NCBI GenBank assembly: GCA_029261135.1
Contig: JAJDBX010000013.1
Span: 431 to 64,430, forward strand
Direction of reading: 5' to 3'
Length of the DNA stretch: 64,000 bases
From: Nitrospirota bacterium
GTDB lineage: Bacteria; Nitrospirota; Nitrospiria; SBBL01; JAADHI01
This document shows positions 2,963 to 64,000 of the stretch, in pieces (positions within the stretch are counted from its first letter, which is position 1; the number at the start of each line of letters is the position of its first letter). The position numbers were made by a program, and so were the translations under genes. The notes beneath the pieces were generated by a model. It searched no databases, was not told the origin of the DNA, and saw only the letters and a program-made list of their open reading frames with translations.

Positions 2963-3295
2963 ATGCCAAAAACAGTGCTCAAAAAAGATTTAGAAGAGGC
3001 CATTGAAAAAGGAGACTCTGGAAAAATCACGGGAACATTGAAAAAGATATTTCTCAACGCAGTTGAACTGAACATCAAAACGACAGTCACAGATCAGCCC
3101 GGGCCAAAAACAATTTCCACAAAGATTAATATTATCGATGGGGATATTGAAACATTTCTCCACAAAGAATTTGCGCCGGACGCAGAAAAAGTCACGGCTT
3201 TCCATAAAGAACAAGTCAATAAAGGCGAAGAAATTATCGCAAGGAATCTCAATACCCTTAAAACCCTTGGGCAAAGCCTGATGGAACTTTTCTAA
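2963..3295 (+). CDS. Hypothetical protein, DGDI-motif family (gene 1 of 3)
   Basis: GGAGG RBS before ATG 2963; AVELNIKTTV, STKINIIDGDIET, FHKEQVNKG. Confidence 0.7.
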   Translation: MPKTVLKKDLEEAIEKGDSGKITGTLKKIFLNAVELNIKTTVTDQPGPKTISTKINIIDGDIETFLHKEFAPDAEKVTAFHKEQVNKGEEIIARNLNTLKTLGQSLMELF

Positions 3296-3309
3296 GTCCG
3301 GCGATCATC

Positions 3310-4131
3310 GTGAGTGGAAAAATCAATGAAATACTGATCGATGCGACGACTTTAGAAGTCAGTTCCCTTCTGGTTGAAGGCATTTCCGGACGTAAAATGC
3401 CCGGGGTTGCAGTCGCCTTTTTTGAAACCGTGCATGCCTGGGCCATTCAGTTTGAGCTTCTGACGGCAGACTTGAGAATTCCTGACCCGCTGCCCACGGA
3501 AGAAGAGGCAATCGAACCTGAATATCATATCGTTGCATCCACACGGGCCTGGCTCAAAAATGATGACAGCCCGGCCAATGAAATTGAAACCTATGAGAAA
3601 AATTTCACTAACCTTGCCGAGAACCCTTTGATGTTACAAATACTTGATTCTCAGTCGATGTTCTCTTTTCAAATACACCAAAGCAAGCAACTAAAAATGA
3701 GAGGAGAACAAGCAAAAACCCCTCGTCAATCTTCAGAGCTTAACCGTTTAATGAAAATTCAAATGCGCCTTTCAAAACTGCGATTTTATTTCTTAAAAAC
3801 AATCGAAACCAATGCAGCGGAGGGTTCCGATAAAAAATCTTTGGATAAAAATATGCTCGTCAATCGTGATATTCAAGAACTCCGAAAACTATGGGACTTG
3901 AAAGACGGCTACATTTTTGCCCAGAATACAGTACAACTCGATGGGGATATCATTAGCAGGCAAAATCTCCGTTTATACCAGGATCCCCGTCTGAAAGAAC
4001 GGACAGCACATCTCTTGGATTTCCATTATCAAAATGTTGATGTGGGCATGAAACATTGGCATTTTATTATCGATACCATCATCAGTTTGGCAAAAGCCGT
4101 CGGGACCGCGATTGTCTCCCCCTTCAAATAA
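3310..4131 (+). CDS. Hypothetical protein, DGDI-motif family (gene 2 of 3)
   Basis: 273-aa ORF; ATTLEVSSLLV, AQNTVQLDGDIISR, FHYQNVDVG. Confidence 0.75.
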   Translation: MSGKINEILIDATTLEVSSLLVEGISGRKMPGVAVAFFETVHAWAIQFELLTADLRIPDPLPTEEEAIEPEYHIVASTRAWLKNDDSPANEIETYEKNFTNLAENPLMLQILDSQSMFSFQIHQSKQLKMRGEQAKTPRQSSELNRLMKIQMRLSKLRFYFLKTIETNAAEGSDKKSLDKNMLVNRDIQELRKLWDLKDGYIFAQNTVQLDGDIISRQNLRLYQDPRLKERTAHLLDFHYQNVDVGMKHWHFIIDTIISLAKAVGTAIVSPFK

Positions 4132-4255
4132 AACCATTCCACTGACACATATTGGAGCGGGTATTGTCACCTTCCCCGTACCATTTTTGTCTGAAAAAAG
4201 TGCTGTGCGATTGAGTCCGCAGTGCCAAAACTCCGGATCTTCAGAAAGCATCAAA

Positions 4256-4675
4256 ATGATGGATCGCCCTTTATTTTTTGAAGTACTTAAAATCGGAGGC
4301 AATCTCCAAAACCTCTTTAAAAAAAACGGTTCTTTTTATGTCGAACTACTCCAGGGGGGCTTTCTTCAAAATGGGGCCATTACCCTGATCGGCTTGATGC
4401 CGGAAGCGGATAAATCCAATTCCAGTCTTCTAACAGAGTCTAAAAAAATCATGAAAACCATCGTTCAACTAGATGGAGACATCATCTGCCAAATAGACAA
4501 AAGTCTTTTAAAAGAACAAGAACTCAGGGCCCTAATCCAGGGGTTTACCCTTGTTCAGGATCAATTCTTTAAAGGGTTTAAAACCGTCCTCACCTCAATT
4601 CGACGTGTCATTATCCTGCTCCTCTCTCTTCTCATTCCGGCGATTTATCTCATTTGGAAAATAATCTTATCCTAA
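4256..4675 (+). CDS. Hypothetical membrane-anchored protein, DGDI-motif family (gene 3 of 3)
   Basis: KTIVQLDGDIICQI; C-terminal hydrophobic helix VIILLLSLLIPAIYLIW; start uncertain (4112 or 4256). Confidence 0.65.
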   Translation: MMDRPLFFEVLKIGGNLQNLFKKNGSFYVELLQGGFLQNGAITLIGLMPEADKSNSSLLTESKKIMKTIVQLDGDIICQIDKSLLKEQELRALIQGFTLVQDQFFKGFKTVLTSIRRVIILLLSLLIPAIYLIWKIILS

Positions 4676-7674: not shown

Positions 7675-7953
7675 ATGAGTTCTATACAATACCGACCTAA
7701 AGAAGTGTGCAAGTTACTAGAACTTTCTTATCGCCAGCTTGAATACTGGGTCTTGATTGGCGTCGTCAAACCCGCATTTGAACCTCACGGCAAGAAAAAG
7801 TACCAGAAATTCAGCTATGAAGACCTTCACTTTTTAAAAAAAGTAAAAGCACTGACAGATGAAGGCTATCTTGTCAGCCGAGCAGCCGAAAAACTCAGAA
7901 AATTGATGAACCAAGAAAAAAATGTTCAATATTCTGTGAAGGTGGCGTCTTGA
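7675..7953 (+). CDS. MerR-type HTH DNA-binding protein (no effector domain)
   Basis: YRPKEVCKLLELSYRQLEYW..IGVVKP...FSYEDL..LK.VK.L.DEG. Confidence 0.8.
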   Translation: MSSIQYRPKEVCKLLELSYRQLEYWVLIGVVKPAFEPHGKKKYQKFSYEDLHFLKKVKALTDEGYLVSRAAEKLRKLMNQEKNVQYSVKVAS

Positions 7954-7988: not shown

Positions 7989-10900
7989 ATGATGGTAACA
8001 CAATGCCCGAAATGCCAAGTGACACAAAGAATTGAGTTCAATCAATTTGACGAAGATTCCGTAATTTTCTGTGGTGATTGTCAGAGCCCATTAAGGATAA
8101 AAGTCGTATTAGAGATTGCTGGAAACGCTGGCGAACAATATACAAACAGCCTTGACCAAGCGCTTCCTTCAAGTGAAAAAAGAGAGAATCAAAAGTCAGT
8201 CATCGTTTGCATTGATGGAGAGGCAACACGGGCTGTGGTCAAAGAAATACTAGAACAAGCCGATTTTCATGTGCTTGATATCCCTTCAGGCATATCAACG
8301 TTCATGTCCATGAAACTGGAGGCCCCTGAGGTGGCACTCATTGATGCGGGTTTCACCGATATGTCGGGTACAGAATTAAGTGCTCAGATTAAGGGAAATT
8401 CAGATCTTAAAAATACCGCCACGCTTTTAGTCAGTTCAATGTTTGAAAAAAATACAAAGTATCGACAACAACCTCCTAATTTATACGGTGCAGATGATTA
8501 TATTGACCGTATTCAAATTCAGACCCAACTATTGTCGAAAATAGAAACCCTCCTAAAAAACAAAGCGAACGGACAGCAAAAATCATTGGACGCATTAGAA
8601 TCCGTACTTGAAACACCTTCTGCAGAAGAACTCCTTACCGGAGGAGGCGAAAGCCCAAGTGCAAACGAAATTTCAGAGGAAAGAGTAGAAGTCGACGAAC
8701 AATCATTCCAGGGTGCTGAAGCACCTGAAACGCCACCGTCCGTTCAAGCAAGTTCAGGGGAAGCATCTTCTGAAATACCAGCAGAAGCGCCGATGGAAGA
8801 AGATTCCGAAGCGCTCAAAGAGGCGAGGCGTCTTGCAAAGCTGATCGTTTCCGATATTGCTTTGTATAATGAAGAGAAAGTGGTGGAAGGTCTTCAAAAA
8901 GGGATTTTTTATCAAATTCTTGAAAATGATATTAAAGAAGGAGAACGTCTTTATGAATCGAGGGTGGATGAATCACTTTATGATTTAGGGATCTTCGAAC
9001 AAGAAATAAAATCGTTTATTGAGAAAAGAAAAGAAAGCCAAGATCAGCGACCTGAAATCATGAACGATTTTCCTGAAGCCGTACAAAAATTAGATGTGAA
9101 AACCGATAAAATTTCTCAAACCCCTGAAGCGGATACCAGTGAAGCAGAACCAGAGACTGAGACAGAAATCTCGGCGGGGCAAGGACCCATTTTTGATAAA
9201 AGTGACGAGGCACTCAAGAAAGCGACTCAAATTTCCCGGGATATTATAAGTGATATTATCAAGAGCAATGAAGATAATCTGCCGAAAGTCATTGAGATAG
9301 ACGATCTTTATGAAATTCTTGGCGATGAAATTATGACGGGTCGACAACTTTTTGAACAAAAAGTGCCCGCATATTTTGATTCGAGCCTTTATGAGGAAGA
9401 AATTGACCGTATCCTTGAAGAGAGAAATGGGGGAGAAGGCCCACTTGTTGATGAGATCCTGTCAAATCCAGAGACGAAATCACCTGAAGGTCAAAACTCC
9501 CGGACCTCACATGAAGGTTTAGAGATTCCTGAACCTGAGGATTCAGTGGATGTCATCAAACAAATAGAACAAGAGGCCGTGAATGTTGTAGAAGGCTCAC
9601 CTCCCCCAATGCCGGAGAGTGCTTGGGAAGATTCCGTTATCCCAGAGACCCAAAATACCGATGATGTCTTCAAACAAATGGAACAAGAGGCCACAGGTGT
9701 TCCAGAAGGCTCACCTCCCCCAATGCCGGAGAGTGCTTGGGAGGATTCCGTTATCCCAGAAACCCAAAATACCGATGATGTCTTCAAACAAATGGAACAA
9801 GAGGCCGGAGGCGTGTCTGAAGAGGCTGTTTCTCAAACCCAGGAAAATATTTGGGAGGATTCTATTCCCCCCGAAGTCAAAAATACAAGAGATGATTTTA
9901 GAGAAATGGATCAAGAAATCGATCCTGCAGTCACTGGTGACATTCCTCAAACGACAGATAGTGCATGGGACGATTCATTCGCGGGTCCAATCCCTGAAGA
10001 TCCAAACGATCTATTTAATCAATTGGAACAAGAGGTCTCGGCCGTGGCCGAAGTAGATACACCTGCACTGGAGAAAGCTGACCTTTCTCCAGAAAATGGA
10101 GAAATCGATGATCTTCTTGGCAATCAGAAAAGTCTCTCGAACCAACCCGAGCAAGACGCTTCCATACCACAACTTGAAAAAGATAAGGCCCTCCCTGAAA
10201 TGGGGAGCACAGATGATATTTTTGGAAAAATGGAAAGTCCAAAGGAAGCTTTCGAGCAAGATAGGGGTACGCCGCAACTTCAAGAAGATAAAGCTCACAC
10301 CGCTGCTTCACCTCAATCTGAAGTAACGTCTACATTCGCGACATCCGAAATAGAAGACTCAAATGAAATTAAAGAAGCCAAGCGGATTGCAAAAATTATT
10401 CTCTCTGATATTGTGATTTACAATGAAAAGAAAGTGGAAGAAGGCATAAAGAATAATACCTTTCATCTTGTCCTTCAAGAGGAAATAAAAGAAGGACGTA
10501 TCCATTTTGAATCAAGAGTCTCTAAAAATATCTTTAAATCAGGACTTTTTGAAAATGTGATCGACGACTTTATCCTAGACAGAAACACCACAGCAGATCA
10601 GTCTGCACCCAGTCCGGATAACACACCTGATGTAGTGGAAGAACAATCCGAATTTTTTCCAGCCGAACCGACAGCAGCAGTACCATCACCAGAAGAGGAT
10701 ATTTTCGGGATTGAATCCAACCCGGAGATTGAAACTCGCAATGCAGCCACGGAAGCCCCAAGCGCTCCTATGCCCTCAGGAAATGGAAATGCATTGGTCG
10801 CCGAAACAAAGGTAGAGAAAGAGGCACTGCGACTTGCAAAGATCATCGTTTCAGACATTGTGATCTATAACGAAGATAAAGTCGAAAAAGGCATTCAATT

Positions 10901-11051
10901 CGGCAATTTTTATGAAATCCTTGAAGAGGAGATCAAAGAAGGAGAAGCCCTTTACGAATCACGTGTCTCTAAAGAAATATTAGAAGAAAAAAACTATTTA
11001 AAAGAGGCCATTGAAGATTTTATTAGCAAAAAATCCACGGCCTCTTCTTAA
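7989..11051 (+). CDS. Zn-ribbon + atypical receiver (REC) domain + acidic disordered linkers + four RomX-like helical domains
   Basis: CPKC/CGDC; REC (VALIDAG, LYGADDYIDR); four copies of A.R.AK.I.SDI..YNE.KV..G.....F...L..EIKEG...YESRV (second copy degenerate); RBS AAGGAG. Confidence 0.8.
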   Translation: MMVTQCPKCQVTQRIEFNQFDEDSVIFCGDCQSPLRIKVVLEIAGNAGEQYTNSLDQALPSSEKRENQKSVIVCIDGEATRAVVKEILEQADFHVLDIPSGISTFMSMKLEAPEVALIDAGFTDMSGTELSAQIKGNSDLKNTATLLVSSMFEKNTKYRQQPPNLYGADDYIDRIQIQTQLLSKIETLLKNKANGQQKSLDALESVLETPSAEELLTGGGESPSANEISEERVEVDEQSFQGAEAPETPPSVQASSGEASSEIPAEAPMEEDSEALKEARRLAKLIVSDIALYNEEKVVEGLQKGIFYQILENDIKEGERLYESRVDESLYDLGIFEQEIKSFIEKRKESQDQRPEIMNDFPEAVQKLDVKTDKISQTPEADTSEAEPETETEISAGQGPIFDKSDEALKKATQISRDIISDIIKSNEDNLPKVIEIDDLYEILGDEIMTGRQLFEQKVPAYFDSSLYEEEIDRILEERNGGEGPLVDEILSNPETKSPEGQNSRTSHEGLEIPEPEDSVDVIKQIEQEAVNVVEGSPPPMPESAWEDSVIPETQNTDDVFKQMEQEATGVPEGSPPPMPESAWEDSVIPETQNTDDVFKQMEQEAGGVSEEAVSQTQENIWEDSIPPEVKNTRDDFREMDQEIDPAVTGDIPQTTDSAWDDSFAGPIPEDPNDLFNQLEQEVSAVAEVDTPALEKADLSPENGEIDDLLGNQKSLSNQPEQDASIPQLEKDKALPEMGSTDDIFGKMESPKEAFEQDRGTPQLQEDKAHTAASPQSEVTSTFATSEIEDSNEIKEAKRIAKIILSDIVIYNEKKVEEGIKNNTFHLVLQEEIKEGRIHFESRVSKNIFKSGLFENVIDDFILDRNTTADQSAPSPDNTPDVVEEQSEFFPAEPTAAVPSPEEDIFGIESNPEIETRNAATEAPSAPMPSGNGNALVAETKVEKEALRLAKIIVSDIVIYNEDKVEKGIQFGNFYEILEEEIKEGEALYESRVSKEILEEKNYLKEAIEDFISKKSTASS
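9567..10035 (+). repeat. In-frame 114-bp (38-aa) tandem repeat inside the 1020-aa protein
   Basis: Unit starts at 9567, 9681, 9795, 9909, ~10026; first two units nearly identical (GSPPPMPESAWEDSVIPETQNTDDVFKQMEQEA), later ones degenerate. Confidence 0.9.
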
Positions 11052-18034: not shown

Positions 18035-18705
18035 TTAACTGCAAAATTCAGAGTTGTGATCTAAATTGTTATATTTCCCCCATAATAAACCGTTTTTTTT
18101 ATTAAAGACCATTTGTTCATTGGCTTGTTTAGAAAGATCATGCGTCGGATCTACGATTGAGGACACAATTTGACTGACCACGGCAGTGACCAATGCCCCC
18201 ACCACACCGCCACCACTGTTTCCTGATCCTTGAACAACATTTTGGGATCGAGCCATAGGGTTTTTCCTGAAGTGACATGCACCAAACGTGCACGGGCTTT
18301 TATGACCGTATTTGAAGATAATACCTGAAATTTTTGGCCCCAGTCTTCGATCGTCACATAAAGCACTGCATCTGCACCAAGTATATTATGAATTTTATCA
18401 AGCGGAATATTGTGCATTTCTCCAGGGGTGGGTAAGCCATTTTCTTTAAGGAAGGCATCAATCACAGCAACGGGAAAAACGTAGTAACCGCATTCTGCAA
18501 GTGGGCGTGAAATGGTAGAGAGATAGATGTAAGAGGCATCGACCTCAAGCGATTCATTCAAGGGGGGTAAAACCAATATAGAACGAGGTCGATGGTCTCT
18601 AAAATTAGAATAATCTTGTTGTTGAACGGTCGCACATGCACTGACGGAGATAAAGAAAATCATCAGTAAAGAAAAACGCATACAATGTGATGCATGCCTC
18701 ATCAT
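18035..18705 (-). pseudogene. DUF799 (GNA1162-like) lipoprotein, frameshifted near 18255
   Basis: PRSILVLPPLNES, PLAECGYYVFPVA, GADAVLYVTI; the C-terminus (NSGGGVVGALVTAVVSQI..GLLWGKY) is in another frame. Confidence 0.8.
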
Positions 18706-19079
18706 TTATTCATCCTTTCTAGGATTCCATCGACAAATTTTTCAGACTCTGGAAATAACGATTTCTCTCTATTGAATTCCTGATGAGCTGCACTGGTATT
18801 TCCTTTTAAAAAATACATATAAGCCAAGTGGGCATGAAGCCCAGGCGCGACTCTTTTCCCTTCGGCATGTGTTTTACCAATTTCTTCTGTGAGTTTGGCA
18901 ATTTGAGTGTCTGTATCTGCCTTCCCTGGATTAATGTAGATATCATATGTAATCGCTTCATATTCGTTCCATCGATACATCGTGGGTTTGGATGAACAAG
19001 CAGCGCTTACAAAAGAAAAAAGAACCAAAGTGCTTAGAAGGAGGTTTTTTTTCAAATGCTTCTTATGCCTTAATTCCAT
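18702..19079 (-). CDS. DUF4810 lipoprotein
   Basis: Lipobox SAAC; MYRWNEYE, VAPGLHAHLAY, EKSLFPES. Confidence 0.85.
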   Translation of the reverse strand: MELRHKKHLKKNLLLSTLVLFSFVSAACSSKPTMYRWNEYEAITYDIYINPGKADTDTQIAKLTEEIGKTHAEGKRVAPGLHAHLAYMYFLKGNTSAAHQEFNREKSLFPESEKFVDGILERMNK

Positions 19080-19762
19080 TGACCTTGCTCCAGACCAAGA
19101 ACCAGTTTATTGACCGCCTCCATAATTGCGAGATTAAGCACCTTTCCGTTGAGTGTTGCGTCATATCCTGCAGTTGAACCAAAACCGATAAATTCCCGGT
19201 TACTCAAGTCATATTCTCCTGCACCTTGCGTTGAAAAAATGATTTCAGAAGTAGACACCTCGATCACATTTAAAGTGACCTTTGCATAGGCCAATTGCCT
19301 TTTTCCTGCCCCGAGAATGCCAAATAACATTCTATCTCCAGTCGTCCGTCGACCGAATTCAGTCACATCCCCTGCAATCGTCACTTGTGCTCCTTTAAGC
19401 TTTTGTGTTTCGCCACGGATGTTTGATTCTCTCTTGATTTCACGCATATTTTCCCGATCAACCAGGACGAAACGTCCAGTTTGCTGTAAGTGTGATTTCA
19501 ATGTTGTTTTGGCTTGGTTCCCAAGTTGATCTGAACCATCGGAAAAGATACCTCGCATATAAGTCGATCTATTTTGAAAACTCCCGACGACCAAGGTCTT
19601 TTTGACTCCCGTAAATGTTGTTCCTGAAGAGGTCACGACTTGTGGGGTCAGTGTCCGATGAGATTCTGTCGCACATGCACTCATTAAAAGTAAGAAGAGT
19701 GGAATAAAAAGAATTCCTTTGTGCATAAATGAACGATGGTCTGAAGTAAAAAAATCTTTCAT
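19070..19762 (-). CDS. CsgG/HfaB-family lipoprotein
   Basis: Lipobox MSAC; FQNRSTY, LGNQAKT.L.SHLQQTGRF.LVDR, GDVTEFGRR, GYDATLNGKVL. Confidence 0.88.
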   Translation of the reverse strand: MKDFFTSDHRSFMHKGILFIPLFLLLMSACATESHRTLTPQVVTSSGTTFTGVKKTLVVGSFQNRSTYMRGIFSDGSDQLGNQAKTTLKSHLQQTGRFVLVDRENMREIKRESNIRGETQKLKGAQVTIAGDVTEFGRRTTGDRMLFGILGAGKRQLAYAKVTLNVIEVSTSEIIFSTQGAGEYDLSNREFIGFGSTAGYDATLNGKVLNLAIMEAVNKLVLGLEQGQWN

Positions 19763-25196: not shown

Positions 25197-26054
25197 TAGT
25201 GTCCTAAACTATTTGGAGTTTATCTAAAGTTGCACGGGCACGATCAACTTTTGCCAATATTTCTTCAGCAGATTTGGTCCATACGAAGGGCATCGGATCA
25301 TCATGATGCTTTTCGATATAACGAAAGATATTTTTTCCCAGATCTTTCACTGAGCACACCAAAAAATCTTTCAAGCAAATTTAACCACGATGAACTGGTG
25401 GGTGTGAAGTGTAGAAATACTCTTTTTTTCCGCTTGAGCCAATTTCGAATCTTTTCATGTTTGTGGGTCGCATAGTTGTCCACAATAATATGTATGTCTT
25501 GACACGCTTCTGTTTGTTTCTCAACCTGTTTTATAAACTTCAGAAATTTTTGATGGCTGTGTTTTCGATAACATTCTCCGATCACCCGACCTCTTGCCAC
25601 TTCCAGAGCAGCAAATAAAGTGCTCGTACCGTTTCTTTTGTAGTTATGGGTCACGGTTCCACAACGACCTTTCTTCAAAGTGTTTATCATTGCTCACTTT
25701 AAACGTTTTACAGGTGGGGTTTGAACCCAAGGGATTGCCAAACACGATGAACAAAACTATGCGTGGTGTTGAGTGCTTTAGCGAGTGTCCGCGTTGACTA
25801 ATGGCTTGCATTGTCAGGCAGTCATCTTAATAATCTTCCGCATCGTAAAACCTTCCTCTGACAACAAGACTATTCGTGAATATTCTATGAGTCTAATCGA
25901 AGTTCTCCGGCTTCTAACATTTTTCTTTAACTGTTGCTTCTCTTCCAATGACAATGAAATCTTGGCTGCGACTTTCATCCCGACTCTCTCATTTATAATG
26001 GTTTTTCGGTATCATAACATCAAGCAACATAATAGTCTTTTAGTTGAGACACTA
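25197..26054 (-). mobile_element. IS630-family element, internally deleted and frameshifted
   Basis: Terminal IRs TAGTGTCCTAAACTA / TAGTTGAGACACTA; fragments MKVAAKISLS..RIVLL (ATG 25978), WSTRTLAK, THNYKRNGTSTLFAAL, DNYATHK, HFTPTSSSWLN, PFVWTKSAEEI. Confidence 0.88.
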
Positions 26055-38507: not shown

Positions 38508-40156
38508 TCATGTGGTGTGGGATGGGCAGAAGATCTCTCTTAACTCTTTCCCGACAAAAGCGGTACAGGCTGAGGGCATAAAACTTTCAGAAGACGCCTC
38601 CTGCATTTCTTGTTGAACCCGTTCAGGGTAGGGCGCATTCAATAAGCTGCCCGGGGAGAGATACGGAAAGATTTCGTCATACCGGCGAACTTCAGTGGCA
38701 CTCACCCGTCGATGAATATGAGAGCGATTCAATTGTGAAGGATGCCGTAAACCAGAGGCCGCTAAAAGCTCAACAACACTTGTTATCGTCTTTTTATGAA
38801 AATTGGCAACTCGTTTTTCCTTTTCGGACACAACAAGTCCTTTGGTAAAAGCCGGATCTTGCGTCGCAACACCGGTGGGGCATTTGTTGCTGTTGCACTC
38901 TAAGGCTTGGATACAACCTAATGCCAGCATCATTGCTCTGGCCGAGTTACATAAATCCGCCCCAAGTGCAAAATTTTTAACCATATGAAATCCTGTGAAG
39001 ATTTTTCCACTGGCGATCACTTTGATCTCTTTTTTCAAATCAAACCCCATGAGGATATCGATGACAAATGCCAATCCATCTCTTAGCGGTGTTCCAACCG
39101 AATTTGTATATTCCAAAGGGGCTGCGCCTGTGCCGCCTTCGCCACCATCGACCGTAATAAAATCCGGTTTGATCCCGGTTTCCAGCATCGCTTTGCAGAT
39201 TGAGGCAAATTCACTTCGCCTTCCGATGCAAATTTTGAATCCGATCGGTTTTCCAGTGGATAACATCCGTAGCTTCTGTTTAAAGTCCATCATTTCAATC
39301 GGCGTTGAAAAACAAGAATGAACCGGAGGAGAATCGATACGAGTGTGTGGTAACACGCCTCTGATTTCAGCTATTTCCCGTGTATTTTTGTCCGCAGGGA
39401 GAATCCCGCCATGCCCTGGTTTAGCCCCTTGTGAAAGCTTTATTTCGATCATTTTAATGTTTTCGTGGGCAGATCTTTCTTTGAATAAGTCCTCAGAAAA
39501 ATGCCCCGACTTGTCACGGCAGCCAAAATAGCCGGTACCTACTTGCCAAATAAGATCCCCCCTGGCATCAAGTGATAGGGACTGACCGAACCTTCCCCGG
39601 TGTTGTGGGCAAAGCCGCCAATCTTGGAGCCTCCATTAAGCGCTAAAATCGCATTTTGGCTCAAAGCGCCAAAACTCATTGCCGAAATATTCAATAGGCT
39701 GGCGTGATACGGTTTGTCACATTCACTCCCCCCAACCATGACTCTGAGGTCATGGTTGATCTCTTGATCATGCAGGGCACTTAGAGAATGATCCATCCAC
39801 TCATAACCGGTGCGATAGACATTCAACTTCGTCCCGAACGGGACAGTATCACGTTGACCTTTTGCCCTTTGATAAACAACCGAACGAAACATTCGGTTGA
39901 TGGGTGTGCCATCAGTATTTGACTCAACAAAATATTGGTGAATCGGAGGACGAAGTATTTCCATAATCCATCGTCCCCGGCCAATCACTGGGAAATTTCG
40001 CCACAGGGTGTGCTTCGCCTGTAATATGTCATAAATACCGCACAAAATAAGCGGAATGATGACATACATCGACCACAAGATCGGAAACCAGAAATAAGCG
40101 ACGGCACTCACAAAAGAGAGGCTTCCAATAGAATAGATGAAGAATATTTTGCGCAT
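38508..40156 (-). pseudogene. FMN-binding glutamate synthase family protein (YerD-like), frameshifted
   Basis: NISAMSFGALS, HNTGEG, WQVGTGYFGCR, EIKLSQGAKPGHGG, VDGGEGGTGAAP, GCIQALECNSNKCPTG; one G short in the G run at ~39557-39562. Confidence 0.88.
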
Positions 40157-59393: not shown

Positions 59394-60152
59394 TTATTTC
59401 CCCAAAGACTCATGAGGCCGTTCTGAGTTATATTCGTACATCCATCGGGTTGTTCTTTCCCGGACTTCATCCAAATCTGAGAACAGATACAAATCTAAAA
59501 CATCTTCCCGATAGGTCCGGTTAAACCGTTCGATATAAGCGTTTTGCGCAGGTTTGCCTGGCTTAATGAAGTCTAAGTCCACGTGGTGTTTTTTTGCCCA
59601 TTCACGCAGTTTCTGTGAAATAAATTCCGGGCCATTATCCATCCGAATGTATTTGGGATACCCCCGCCATTCGGCTATACAATCGAGCTTTCTTGTCACA
59701 CGTTCAGTAGGGAAAGATCGATCAATTTCTATCCCCAAGGCTTCTCGATTGAAGTCGTCTATGATGTTCAAGGTGCGATAGGTTCCACCTGCTGCAAGAC
59801 TGTCCCGCATGAAGTCCATTGACCAACAAATGTTCGAATAAAGCGGTTGAACCAAGGGTTCTGGGTTTCTACTGGGAAAGCGTCTCTTCGGCTTTTTTCT
59901 TAAATTCAGGGACAGTTCACAGTACACACGGTACACGCGTTTATGATTCCAGGGCTGGCCCTGTATTTTTAAACGCTGAAACATCTTATTAAATCCCCAT
60001 CTCGGTTTATCTTTTGCCAACTGCCGCAAATGCGTCTCAATCATATTGTCCTCATTTGGCTTCGCCTGATAACGATAGGCCGTGCGACTCACCCCAAAAA
60101 GGCCACAGCTTCTTCTTTCGGAGAAGCGGTGAGCTTCAATGGCATATCGCAC
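59394..60152 (-). CDS. IS3 transposase OrfB (integrase core)
   Basis: WNHKRVYRVY, WSMDFM, DDFNRE, DNGPEF, PGKPAQNAYIERFNR. Confidence 0.9.
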   Translation of the reverse strand: MRYAIEAHRFSERRSCGLFGVSRTAYRYQAKPNEDNMIETHLRQLAKDKPRWGFNKMFQRLKIQGQPWNHKRVYRVYCELSLNLRKKPKRRFPSRNPEPLVQPLYSNICWSMDFMRDSLAAGGTYRTLNIIDDFNREALGIEIDRSFPTERVTRKLDCIAEWRGYPKYIRMDNGPEFISQKLREWAKKHHVDLDFIKPGKPAQNAYIERFNRTYREDVLDLYLFSDLDEVRERTTRWMYEYNSERPHESLGK

Positions 60153-60175
60153 GAGCGTTTTTCGATCAGCTGGCT

Positions 60176-60442
60176 TTACAACTTTTTTTCAATCACATCC
60201 TTTAAAACCTGATGATCCAGACTCAATTCTGAATACATCCGCTTCAGTCGAAGGTTTTCATCTTCAAGGGCCTTCAACCTTTTAAAATCTGAGGCTTCAA
60301 GGCCGCCATATTTTGCCCGCCATTTATAAAATGTCGCATCACTCATCCCATTTTTTCGGCACAAATCAACAACGCTCATCCCGTTCTCTGCTTCTTTCAG
60401 TATCGACATAATTTGGGAATCGGTAAATCTCGATCACTTCAT
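60176..60442 (-). pseudogene. IS3 transposase OrfA with a stop at codon 3
   Basis: ATG AAG TGA TCG AGA TTT ACC (MK*SRFTDSQI); TFYKWRAKYGG, RLKALEDENLRLK. Confidence 0.8.
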
Positions 60443-61487
60443 CGTAAAGCCTCCTTCTCCATTCATTCTAAAAGAAAACTCTACTCCTAACTGGTTCTAT
60501 TTTAGGGGAGGCTTACCCCAGGCCTCTGCAAAACGATCCAGCTCAAGGCTTGCTTCCTGCTCTGTGGTGGAGTGATAGATTCGCTTCAAATCTGCTGTGA
60601 CGGCTTTGTCGTCTTTCCAGGGGACGTATTTTAATGCATTGCGTACCATGTGGATGATGCAGAGCTGAAGCCTGGCATCGGGAAAAGCGGTGTTGCCCGA
60701 ATCAGGAAAACCACTAAGACCATCAACACAGACAATTAGAATCTCCTCGACGCCACGGTGTTTAAGCTCTGTGAGTACCTGTAACCAGAATTTGGCCCCC
60801 TCTGTCTCGGCGATCCACAGCCCCAATAACTCCTTGTGCCCCTCCAGATTCACGCCCAGTGCAAGGTAGATCGATTTGTTGATCACTCGCTTGTCCTGAC
60901 GAATCTTGAGCACGATACAATCAAGATAAACAATGGGATAAACGGCATCCAGAGGACGATTCTGCCATTGAATGACTTCTTCCATCACGGCGTTGGTGAC
61001 CTTTGATATCAGCCCTGCTGAGACCTCGGCACCATACATCTCCTGAAGAGCATCAACGATATCTCGTGTGCTCATCCCTTTGGCATAAAGGCTCAGTATC
61101 TGATCATCCATCCCCGTGATACGGGTTTGGCCTTTGCCAATGATGTCGGGTTCAAATGTGGCTTCACGGTCACGCGGCGTATCAATCACGATTTCGCCAT
61201 GATGGCCTTTTAAGGTTTTTGGACTGTAACCGTTACGACTGTTACCGCTATTGTGACCCTTCACATCATAGGGACTATAACCAAAATGGGGTTCCATCTC
61301 GGCTTTTAATGCGGCCTCGACGGTGATTTTTGTAAGCTGAGCGCTGAGGGCGCTTAGGTCTTCTGGGGTTTTAAGGTCTTTCGCTAGCTCGGATGCTAGC
61401 GCTTTTATCTTTTCTTGTTTCTCTCTCATACTCATTATTAGCCTCCAATTGTAAGGTAAGAAATAATGAGCAGTTACTCAATTTATT

Positions 61488-62194: not shown

Positions 62195-64000
62195 TTATGC
62201 TCCTGCCAGTTTTTTCGCCACGCCAATACAGCGTTCCATGATCATGTCCATATCATCTGTCGTCAGCCTAATCCCTCTATTATTTCGCACATCGAACAGA
62301 TAATCATCGATGTCATTTTGTATTTTACTAATGACATCATCATTGCGGTGCCAATCACGTATTTTTTGCTTAGCAATAATACCCTCAATATCCAAGGCCA
62401 AACCAGCAATCGTTATTTCATCTAAATGAGTATGTGAGGTCTCATAATGCGCTGGGGGTTCTGCGACCATAAGAACATCTTCTTCATTAGAGACCATCAC
62501 CTCGTTTAGCACACCAAAATAAGCCTGAGCTTCCCGGTGCCCTTCCAATTTCACGGGAACATCGTCTTCATACCCACGTCGCATTTTTTCCATGTACTCG
62601 GTTTCTAGTCTTAGATATTCAGATTGATCAATACGACCTTGTCGATAATCATCAATTGTTTGTTGAACCAATTCAGCAAACTTTTTATAGAAAACGGGAT
62701 CTTCTTCCATCTTTTCAGTGATAGTTTTTTTATTTCGATGTGCTATCATGTCTGCTTTGGCCACTTTACTTTCTCGTTTCTGCACCTCCGCATCAAAGGT
62801 TTCAGTATCAAATATATTCACCATCTCCGTGACGATCCCCACATTCGGTGCCTGAATATGGCTATCCATGACCTTACGGATTTGTTTCTCGTATTGGGCG
62901 AAATCAATTGTCTCGGCATAACGCTGCTGAACGGATGCACGCAAGCTGCGGAAATGTTTTAAATCGTTTTTGTAACTCTTGATACGGTTTTTAGGCGTAT
63001 CTTGATAGAAGTGCTGAGTCGATAAAGCCACAACGAATACTTTTGAAAATTCCGTTAAAGCCTCATAAAATTCCTGGCGTCTGTCAACAGGATCCAAGTG
63101 TCGTTCCATCGATTCATTATCATGTTTGTTCTTGACCTCCTTGAATACGGCCCATAGATCCGAGTGTAATTGCGACAGTTTGGCCACTTCCTCATGGGTA
63201 TCAATTACTGCACCTTGGAGCAACACATCTTCTGCGTCATAACCGGCCAGAGAATCGTAGGTTTGCATCGCCTCATTCAGGCTACCCAGCACCCCCCGAT
63301 AATCGATAATGTAACCGTAATCTTTATCGGAAAAGAGACGGTTCACTCGAGAAATCGCCTGTAGAATACTGTGATCTTCCAGCTTCTTATCGATATAAAG
63401 CACCGTATTTCTGGGCTCGTCAAAGCCGGTAAGCAACTTGCTCACGACAATCAGTATCTCCACCCCATCTTCACGACCGAATGATGCTTTTATCTGTTTA
63501 ACATAATCCTCTTCATGGCCAAACCGATCCATCATCTCTTTCCAAAATCGATTCAGCAGCGGGAAATCTTCTTCTTCAATGGTATCGCCGCCCTCGCGTG
63601 TATCCGGTTTCGACATAATGACTTCACAGCTCACCATGCCGTAATCATTCATATAATTGCGGTACAAAATGGCGCTGCTGCGTGAATCGCTAGCAAGCTG
63701 CCCTTTAAAGCCAGTGCCCTGGAAATTCTCGCGATAATGTTTGCTAATATCATAAGCGAGTAAGGCCACGCGCTGTTCGAGCTTATGGATCATCTCCTTT
63801 GAGGTCATTTTTCGTTTGAGATCTGCTTTCTGCTTTTGAGTCAAGCCCTCAGTTAAACGCTCAAACCAGGCATCCATTGCCTCTTTATTCATTTCCAAAT
63901 TAGCAATGCGTCCTTCATATAACAACGGCAATACGGCTTTATCTTCCACAGTAGCTTTACGGAGCGGATAACTATGAATCAGACCACCGAATTTGCGCGC
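62195..64000 (-). CDS. hsdR: Type I restriction endonuclease subunit R, C-terminal part (runs off the window)
   Basis: AVLPLLYEGR, ILIVVSKLLTGFDEP, LYIDK, LQAISRVNR, GYIIDYRG. Confidence 0.92.
   Translation of the reverse strand, partial: ARKFGGLIHSYPLRKATVEDKAVLPLLYEGRIANLEMNKEAMDAWFERLTEGLTQKQKADLKRKMTSKEMIHKLEQRVALLAYDISKHYRENFQGTGFKGQLASDSRSSAILYRNYMNDYGMVSCEVIMSKPDTREGGDTIEEEDFPLLNRFWKEMMDRFGHEEDYVKQIKASFGREDGVEILIVVSKLLTGFDEPRNTVLYIDKKLEDHSILQAISRVNRLFSDKDYGYIIDYRGVLGSLNEAMQTYDSLAGYDAEDVLLQGAVIDTHEEVAKLSQLHSDLWAVFKEVKNKHDNESMERHLDPVDRRQEFYEALTEFSKVFVVALSTQHFYQDTPKNRIKSYKNDLKHFRSLRASVQQRYAETIDFAQYEKQIRKVMDSHIQAPNVGIVTEMVNIFDTETFDAEVQKRESKVAKADMIAHRNKKTITEKMEEDPVFYKKFAELVQQTIDDYRQGRIDQSEYLRLETEYMEKMRRGYEDDVPVKLEGHREAQAYFGVLNEVMVSNEEDVLMVAEPPAHYETSHTHLDEITIAGLALDIEGIIAKQKIRDWHRNDDVISKIQNDIDDYLFDVRNNRGIRLTTDDMDMIMERCIGVAKKLAGA

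Follow-up and report, generated by a model that had tools for sequence, protein, structure and literature searches.

A three-gene operon of distantly paralogous DGDI proteins with a predicted tail-anchored member in a Nitrospirota genome

A stretch of 64,000 nucleotides (the window) from a Nitrospirota bacterium of the GTDB class Nitrospiria (GenBank assembly GCA_029261135.1, contig JAJDBX010000013.1, forward-strand positions 431 to 64,430) contains three adjacent genes, here termed g1, g2 and g3, between window positions 2963 and 4675. The best explanation of the locus is an independent operon with translational coupling, whose three genes are distant paralogues; the trio occurs in the same order in several phyla and is abundant in cyanobacteria. 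With a probability of roughly 0.4, the three products form a membrane-anchored structural or organising hetero-oligomer of chromosomal, housekeeping character rather than a phage-defence system.

Organisation of the operon

An earlier reading made from the nucleotide sequence alone (the sequence-only reading) proposed three co-oriented open reading frames (ORFs) preceded by a strong terminator and by a promoter of their own. The three ORFs are present and tightly packed on the + strand, with 14 nucleotides (nt) between g1 and g2 and an overlap of 20 nt between g2 and g3. The long form of g3 is taken to be genuine, as relatives conserve its N-terminal LTHxGxG..F.VP motif. The features of the locus, in window coordinates, are as follows.

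2728 to 2764, + strand: intrinsic terminator of the upstream gene, a 15-bp GC-rich hairpin followed by a U run
2837 to 2865, + strand: candidate sigma-70-type promoter, TTGCCA, 17-nt spacer, TATATT, 10 of 12 consensus matches
2953 to 2957, + strand: Shine-Dalgarno sequence GGAGG, 5 nt upstream of the g1 ATG, read from the sequence
2963 to 3295, + strand: g1, 110 amino acids (aa), ATG start, soluble
3137 to 3148, + strand: DGDI turn of g1, residues 59-62
3310 to 4131, + strand: g2, 273 aa, GTG start, soluble
3400 to 3909, + strand: helical insert of g2, approximately residues 31-200
3940 to 3951, + strand: DGDI turn of g2, residues 211-214
4112 to 4675, + strand: g3, 187 aa, TTG start, tail-anchored by hydropathy
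4472 to 4483, + strand: DGDI turn of g3, residues 121-124
4604 to 4666, + strand: C-terminal transmembrane (TM) helix of g3, residues 165-185, by hydropathy

The terminator at 2728 to 2764 separates the operon from the upstream gene. Folding of its hairpin (2728 to 2761) bore out the proposed strength, giving -22.6 kcal/mol and a z score of -5.1, and none of 200 shuffled sequences folded equally well. The same hairpin is absent from a scan for consensus terminators, though its folding and U run show a strong terminator. No terminator was evident by folding 3' of g3 (z 0.33). As for the separate candidate promoter, a site with 10 of 12 matches does lie at 2837 to 2865; it is a consensus match only, in a region with seven such sites against 4.3 expected.

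A module common to three paralogous proteins

The tetrapeptide DGDI is found in 15 of the 4282 six-frame ORFs of at least 100 aa in the whole 3.2-Mb genome (0.35%), and g1, g2 and g3 are three of these. At such a frequency, chance falls far short of explaining three adjacent carriers. The longer T-x(1-3)-[IV]-x-[IL]-(I)-DGDI core that had been proposed for all three proteins was present literally in g1 and g3, and no other genome ORF matched that pattern; the core of g2 (NTVQLDGDI) fits a relaxed form only. Residues of the turn are strongly conserved in all three families: G60 is invariant and D61 at least 90% conserved among 80 g1 sequences, G212 and D213 are both invariant among 71 g2 sequences, and D121 is invariant and D123 at least 90% conserved among 23 g3 sequences. 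The common module is predicted to span about 60 residues and to consist of a strand, a tight [DEQ]-G-D turn, a second strand and a long amphipathic helix, in most cases beginning with F-H.

Profile comparisons show that g1, g2 and g3 contain homologous copies of this predicted module. With hhalign, residues 51-110 of g1 aligned with residues 204-270 of g2 (95.0%, E 3.9e-8, 62 columns), g1 22-51 with g2 1-30 (85.5%, E 5.7e-6), and g3 111-153 with g2 201-247 (96.3%, E 1.5e-9). These values come from deep profiles; shallow ones gave weaker links (58.7%, 90.4% and 1.9%) than the deep ones for g1 with the g2 C terminus, g3 with g2 and g1 with g3 (95.0%, 96.3% and 35.7%). A search of the 4282 genome ORFs with the g2 profile hit only g2 itself, g3 (E 1.1e-4) and g1 (E 6.8e-3), and the g1 profile cross-hits distant g2-like proteins at E values of 1e-8 to 1e-3. 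Profiles were needed because pairwise BLASTP links only g2 and g3, through 25 residues (E 0.003), and finds no match of g1 to either of the others. The paralogy put forward by the sequence-only reading is thus borne out by hhalign links and by cross-hits of hidden Markov models. So are its finer observations on g1 and g2, since their common upstream [ET]L[NE][IV] strand was aligned in the profile-profile comparison and the downstream FH..[QN]V segment was aligned by hhalign.

Architecture of the individual proteins

The AlphaFold2 model of g1 has a mean predicted local distance difference test score (pLDDT) of 79.4 and comprises two N-terminal helices, three strands (38-43, 51-55 and 62-67) and a 36-residue C-terminal helix. 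The D59-G60-D61 turn lies between strands 2 and 3, and the C-terminal helix (74-109) is amphipathic and opens with FH. By hydropathy, g1 contains no hydrophobic stretch and no TM helix. The g1 family, with 111 representatives at an E value of ≤0.001, is wider than the narrow g2 family. Second g1 copies in cyanobacteria consist of the module followed by an acidic, proline-rich and probably disordered tail of approximately 250 to 850 residues (loci L020, 4977-6596; L043, 4965-7520; and L067, 5607-6698; proteins P0078, P0091, P0138, P0145 and P0151).

The conserved polar residues of the module, G-D and F-H, could be read as a metal site formed by the turn Asp and the helix His, which would make the module a zincin-like domain, degenerate or atypical, that binds metal or acts as a hydrolase. 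This is very improbable. HExxH is absent, the corresponding segment being F80-H81-K-E-Q-V in g1 and FHxxQV in the consensus of 80 sequences, and the His that opens the module helix is lost in Nitrospirota-type g3. The structural matches in favour are weak, namely, selecase (Foldseek E 0.12 to 0.55; Z 2.7), TTHA0227 (Z 2.4), BlaR1 (Z 2.2) and SPRTN (Z 2.2), together with BFVD matches from the top 50 (seven SprT-like proteins, one zincin protease and one protein with a metallopeptidase domain), and all fold scores lie within the background (best Z 5.7 and 4.3). Peptidase_M3 matched five of 80 family members, with a best E value of 0.033.

In g2, both ends of the protein align to g1: residues 1-30 correspond to g1 22-51 (helix and strand 1), and residues 204-270 correspond to g1 51-110 (strand 2, DGD, strand 3 and the FH helix). 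g2 is therefore interpreted as a g1-type module split between strands 1 and 2. The insert of about 170 residues (approximately 31-200) is a predicted helical bundle whose length varies among relatives and which AlphaFold2 models as a block with pLDDT values of 68 to 94 up to residue 170 and of 59 to 75 from there to residue 200. Conservation in g2 is highest at residues 1-27 and 201-224, where the monomer model has pLDDT values of <50, which would fit folding upon assembly. The C-terminal helix (252-270) is borderline hydrophobic (1.69). The narrow g2 family numbers 31 proteins in a collection of 5.8 billion, none of them with a Pfam domain.

The third protein, g3, consists of an N-terminal extension, the module core (111-153), a juxtamembrane amphipathic helix (148-167; hydrophobic moment, 0.74) and the C-terminal TM helix. 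The best 19-residue window of that helix (167-185) has a Kyte-Doolittle value of 2.51, all windows exceeding 1.6 start at residues 156-169, and two residues remain after the helix. Judged by hydropathy, g3 has the topology of a tail-anchored protein, with a single C-terminal hydrophobic helix and no N-terminal signal sequence, in agreement with the earlier proposal of one membrane-anchored member.

Searches for known families and folds

None of the three proteins had a match above the curated cutoff in Pfam-A or NCBIfam, none matched a PHROGs family, and PADLOC-DB 2.0.0 (2023 library) gave no match to any of them at E values of up to 1. Profile searches of the PDB gave best E values of 0.014 for g1 (the N-terminal region of a large toxin) and 0.03 for g2 (CagM), both taken as chance. 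Among 24 g1 relatives, 22 had no Pfam family at an E value of ≤0.01, and one had DUF6847 below the cutoff; the Pfam hits of two long g1 relatives (P0075 and P0100) are repeat domains outside the module. No Pfam family recurred among the 80 members of the g1 alignment or in the cyanobacterial trios.

Foldseek returned no match at an E value of ≤0.001 for the models searched, and the ESM Atlas gave no usable match for g1 or for one cyanobacterial g1. The best Z scores of a wide structural search (5.7 for g1 and 8.3 for g2) are both within background. Helical bundles of mitofusin, BDLP and LemA matched the g2 insert at Z scores of 6.7 to 7.8, which is the range expected of helical bundles. The trio is thus without a name, family model or structural relative in the libraries searched, as the sequence-only reading anticipated when it assigned the proteins to no characterised family.

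Conserved order, selection and joint divergence

The order g1-g2-g3 is kept at all seven genome loci found with the narrow g2 family. Five of these are in Nitrospirota metagenome-assembled genomes (MAGs) with syntenic flanks; the two others have unrelated flanks and come from a Desulfobacterales MAG and from one labelled Deltaproteobacteria, which falls within Myxococcota in the tree. A metagenome scan with the g1 family yielded 80 loci, of which 76 had a called g1 and 62 had at least 700 nt downstream of it. The next + strand gene after g1 was g2-like in 54 of the 62, and where at least 500 nt lay beyond g2 (45 loci), the third gene carried the motif in 35, a TM helix in its C-terminal half in 38 and both in 34; these counts are not independent, because several loci are near-duplicates. 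Overlaps of 4 to 44 nt between g2 and g3 recur in 13 other close relatives of the trio (among L002-L018), and at more distant loci the two genes are mostly separated, by gaps of up to 229 nt. Across phyla, therefore, the ordered trio behaves as the conserved gene cluster that had been expected. No fourth component recurring across lineages was found, and the recurrent neighbours are lineage specific.

The three proteins may share ancestry without forming one complex, for example, with g1 and g2 as soluble regulators or chaperones and g3 as a separately acting membrane protein. The g1 family is larger (111 representatives) than the narrow g2 family (31 proteins), cyanobacteria possess extra g1 copies with long acidic tails, and g1 may also act alone, because eight of the 62 loci show no recognisable g2 next to it. 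Tight order, overlaps and joint divergence would nevertheless be hard to explain without joint function, and independent action of the three products is unlikely.

All three genes are under purifying selection. In close relatives (synonymous divergence, dS, of 0.2 to 0.6), the ratio of nonsynonymous to synonymous divergence (dN/dS) is 0.07 to 0.13 for g1, 0.07 to 0.08 for g2 and 0.23 to 0.30 for g3, compared with 0.03 to 0.05 for the upstream gene. Relative to two loci of the same genus, L005 (genome G315) and L008 (genome G341), the flanks are 64 to 83% identical and g1, g2 and g3 are 50, 47 and 34% and 55, 41 and 33% identical, respectively. The corresponding values for locus L002 are 67 to 79% for the flanks and 72, 73 and 56% for the three genes, and identity of the three-gene module across this second set of relatives (L002-L004 and L011) is 55 to 73%. 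In a tree of g2, the two versions form separate, well-supported clades within an unresolved polytomy and are not sisters. This pattern would reflect either exchange of the whole module at an unchanged site or evolution in bursts; in both cases the three genes appear to move together.

Distribution and genomic context

With g1 or g2 profiles, the trio was detected in three of 401 sampled Nitrospirota genomes, i.e., the source genome and the two other genomes sampled from its genus, and in three of 301 genomes from the phylum of the Desulfobacterales MAG. Four DNA sequencing runs linked to the window come from one biofilm metagenome study, and three of them are possible sources of its DNA. Neighbours such as psbP and ebsA mark many of the metagenome loci as cyanobacterial. 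A cyanobacterial g2 had 489 relatives (clusters) at an E value of ≤0.001, and all of the named ones, from Coleofasciculaceae, Allocoleopsis, Lyngbya and others, are annotated as "hypothetical protein". Clusters of similar hypothetical proteins in cyanobacteria, which the sequence-only reading mentioned, do therefore exist.

In the window, the upstream neighbour of the operon encodes a secreted CarboxypepD_reg-like protein, and the downstream neighbours encode PP-loop/ThiI-like, metallo-beta-lactamase-fold and histone deacetylase family proteins. The remaining genes have housekeeping character, except for a few transposases and a type I restriction R-subunit-like gene near the far end; the nearest restriction-like gene is 57 kb from the trio. 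Pfam annotation of the neighbours at 12 related loci and in the window revealed no defence genes beside the trio. Relatives of the trio were absent from 72,556 plasmids and 50,697 phage records, and none of 120 pattern matches on viral contigs was confirmed.

These observations bear on the possibility of a conflict system, whether of the abortive infection, toxin-antitoxin-like or another anti-phage type, in which g3 would be a membrane-disrupting effector checked or triggered by g1 and g2. Such a system would account for the rarity and patchiness of the trio, for two deeply diverged versions that occupy one syntenic site in a single genus (33 to 55% identity in the module against 64 to 83% in the flanks) and for the small size, tail anchor and fastest evolution of g3; patchiness and unit-wise divergence keep this rival alive. 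Phage defence is argued against by a context that is chromosomal, housekeeping and lineage stable and by the absence of the trio from mobile elements. Stable synteny, the 489 cyanobacterial clusters and purifying selection on all three genes point the same way. A conflict system is accordingly not a likely explanation, and the link to defence suggested by the sequence-only reading was not sustained, with no PADLOC match, no defence-island context and no phage, plasmid or viral relatives. Should the trio be one after all, it would have been missed by current defence catalogues.

Two arrangements recur in cyanobacteria. In the first, maf is followed by two copies of g1 (one with a long acidic tail), g2 and a multi-TM g3. 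The second comprises genes for a periplasmic binding protein, ebsA and an 87-aa protein, followed by g1, g2, g3 and a gene for a GH19-like protein of 420 aa. The identity of ebsA is given by NCBIfam NF045587 (159.8 bits against a cutoff of 33). The gene lies two genes 5' of g1 in 17 loci and three genes 5' in one, the 87-aa gene directly precedes g1 in 22 loci, and the GH19-like gene follows g3 in 12. ebsA-linked loci, which include L021, L022, L026, L034, L035, L037, L044, L047, L050 and L051, belong to one cyanobacterial lineage. EbsA is a cyanobacterial factor needed for the biogenesis of pili and a binding partner of PilB and Hfq (PMC8092324, PMC11407516).

This fixed order, together with one locus (L017) that has FecR-like, OmpA-like and CHASE2/HD genes after the trio, would suit a complex that serves an envelope machine, such as type IV pili or protein secretion, or cell wall remodelling, and that recruits this machine to the membrane or positions it there. 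The ebsA link is confined to one lineage, however, and may be inherited synteny. In the ebsA-linked arrangement, intergenic gaps of approximately 180 to 190 nt lie on either side of the 87-aa gene, towards ebsA and towards g1, and no such neighbours occur in Nitrospirota, in the Myxococcota- and Desulfobacterales-labelled MAGs or in the maf/psbP type of cyanobacteria. An envelope accessory is therefore quite unlikely.

Proposed assembly and significance

Within the preferred interpretation, a membrane-anchored hetero-oligomer with a structural or organising function, g1, g2 and g3 would associate via their like modules, with strands pairing and helices bundling, and g3 would tether the assembly to the inner membrane on its cytoplasmic side. 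The sequence-only reading likewise envisaged a hetero-oligomer, which might be a filament, a pore or a membrane-remodelling complex. We infer this physical assembly, its topology and its role from the gene overlaps, conserved order, paralogy, joint divergence, low model confidence of the g2 ends and the tail anchor. A complex prediction for g2 and g3 (residues 1-160), with g1 as the partner, scored 0.11 against a mark of 0.32 and was counted neither way.

Several findings weigh against such an assembly. The direct comparison of g1 with g3 is weak (hhalign, 35.7%, E 3.9e-4), and the region of g3 upstream of the motif aligned with neither g1 nor g2 in the profile comparison. AlphaFold2 draws the module of g1 as strands and that of g2 as helices of low confidence, so that a common fold is suggested by sequence profiles only. 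Eight of 62 metagenome loci lack a recognisable g2 after g1. The patchy distribution (3/401 and 3/301 genomes) and the faster divergence of the three-gene module than of its flanks are features also seen in conflict systems.

A bolder proposal is that the trio represents an unrecognised membrane complex, a tail-anchored hetero-oligomer of new-fold paralogues that tethers or shapes the membrane at its cytoplasmic face, is common in cyanobacteria, where extra copies have acidic disordered tails several hundred residues long, and has reached Nitrospirota, Desulfobacterota and Myxococcota by sporadic gene transfer. This is unlikely. If assembly at the membrane were confirmed, the module would be a new building block of bacterial membrane organisation. 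Cyanobacterial geneticists would then also have a defined group of "conserved hypothetical" genes to test, in part adjacent to the pilus factor gene ebsA. Whichever interpretation holds, the three profiles could seed family models for an ordered trio that occurs across phyla, is abundant in cyanobacteria and has no name, family model or structural relative in the libraries searched.

Other features of the window

Several further features lie elsewhere in the window. A gene at 7989 to 11051 (+ strand), just downstream of a MerR family gene (7675 to 7953), encodes a 1020-aa protein with a weak receiver domain match (27.2 bits, below the cutoff of 30.2). The protein contains four units of about 60 residues (…IVSDI.LYNE.KV..G…FY..L.E.I.EG..LYESRV…) between long acidic linkers. 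A lipoprotein trio (CsgG-like, DUF4810 and GNA1162-like) is encoded at 18154 to 19762 (- strand). Two adjacent ORFs at 38511 to 40156 (- strand) match the conserved region of glutamate synthase and may be a split or frameshifted gene. Transposases or their fragments (IS1595-like, DDE_3, rve and Mutator family) and the type I restriction R-subunit-like gene are found at 2 to 286, 25304 to 25690, 59397 to 61435 and 62198 to 63949; these genes are close to the ends of the window and distant from the trio.

Comparison with known systems

Minimal zincins such as selecase and SprT-like proteins resemble g1 in the order of their elements, with three strands forming a sheet and then a long helix that has a conserved His at its start. 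Unlike them, g1 lacks HExxH, and the superposition on selecase (Z 2.7; root mean square deviation, 6.4 Å over 66 residues) is within background. YbaB/EbfC proteins, of about 110 aa with a helix, three strands and a helix, resemble g1 in size and in the order of elements. They differ in that g1 has no Pfam match and has a membrane protein among its partners, and they were not among the top 50 matches of the wide fold search. In one cyanobacterial lineage the EbsA-linked pilus locus adjoins the trio; the trio has no homology to EbsA, and the link is absent from the window and from other lineages. AncM (slr2070 of Synechocystis), a cyanobacterial membrane-anchor protein (PMC12661324, PMC13353191), was considered as a possible named counterpart.

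Two systems invite comparison with the proposed assembly as a whole. SNARE-type assemblies offer an analogy, as they consist of paralogous subunits with a long amphipathic helix, one of which has a C-terminal anchor and one an extra helical bundle. The trio, by contrast, has a strand-turn-strand before the helix, belongs to the bacterial cytoplasm and shows no sequence or fold match. ESCRT-III/PspA-type structures were absent among the matches listed for the g2 fold searches, in which helical models have a high background. The trio is further distinguished from PspA and LiaH by the lack of a PspA_IM30 Pfam match, by the strand-turn-strand of its module and by subunits that are paralogous to one another. 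What it would have in common with the PspA and LiaH operons, in which PspA is encoded with PspB and PspC and LiaH with LiaI, is the combination of soluble helical proteins with a small membrane anchor at the cytoplasmic face.

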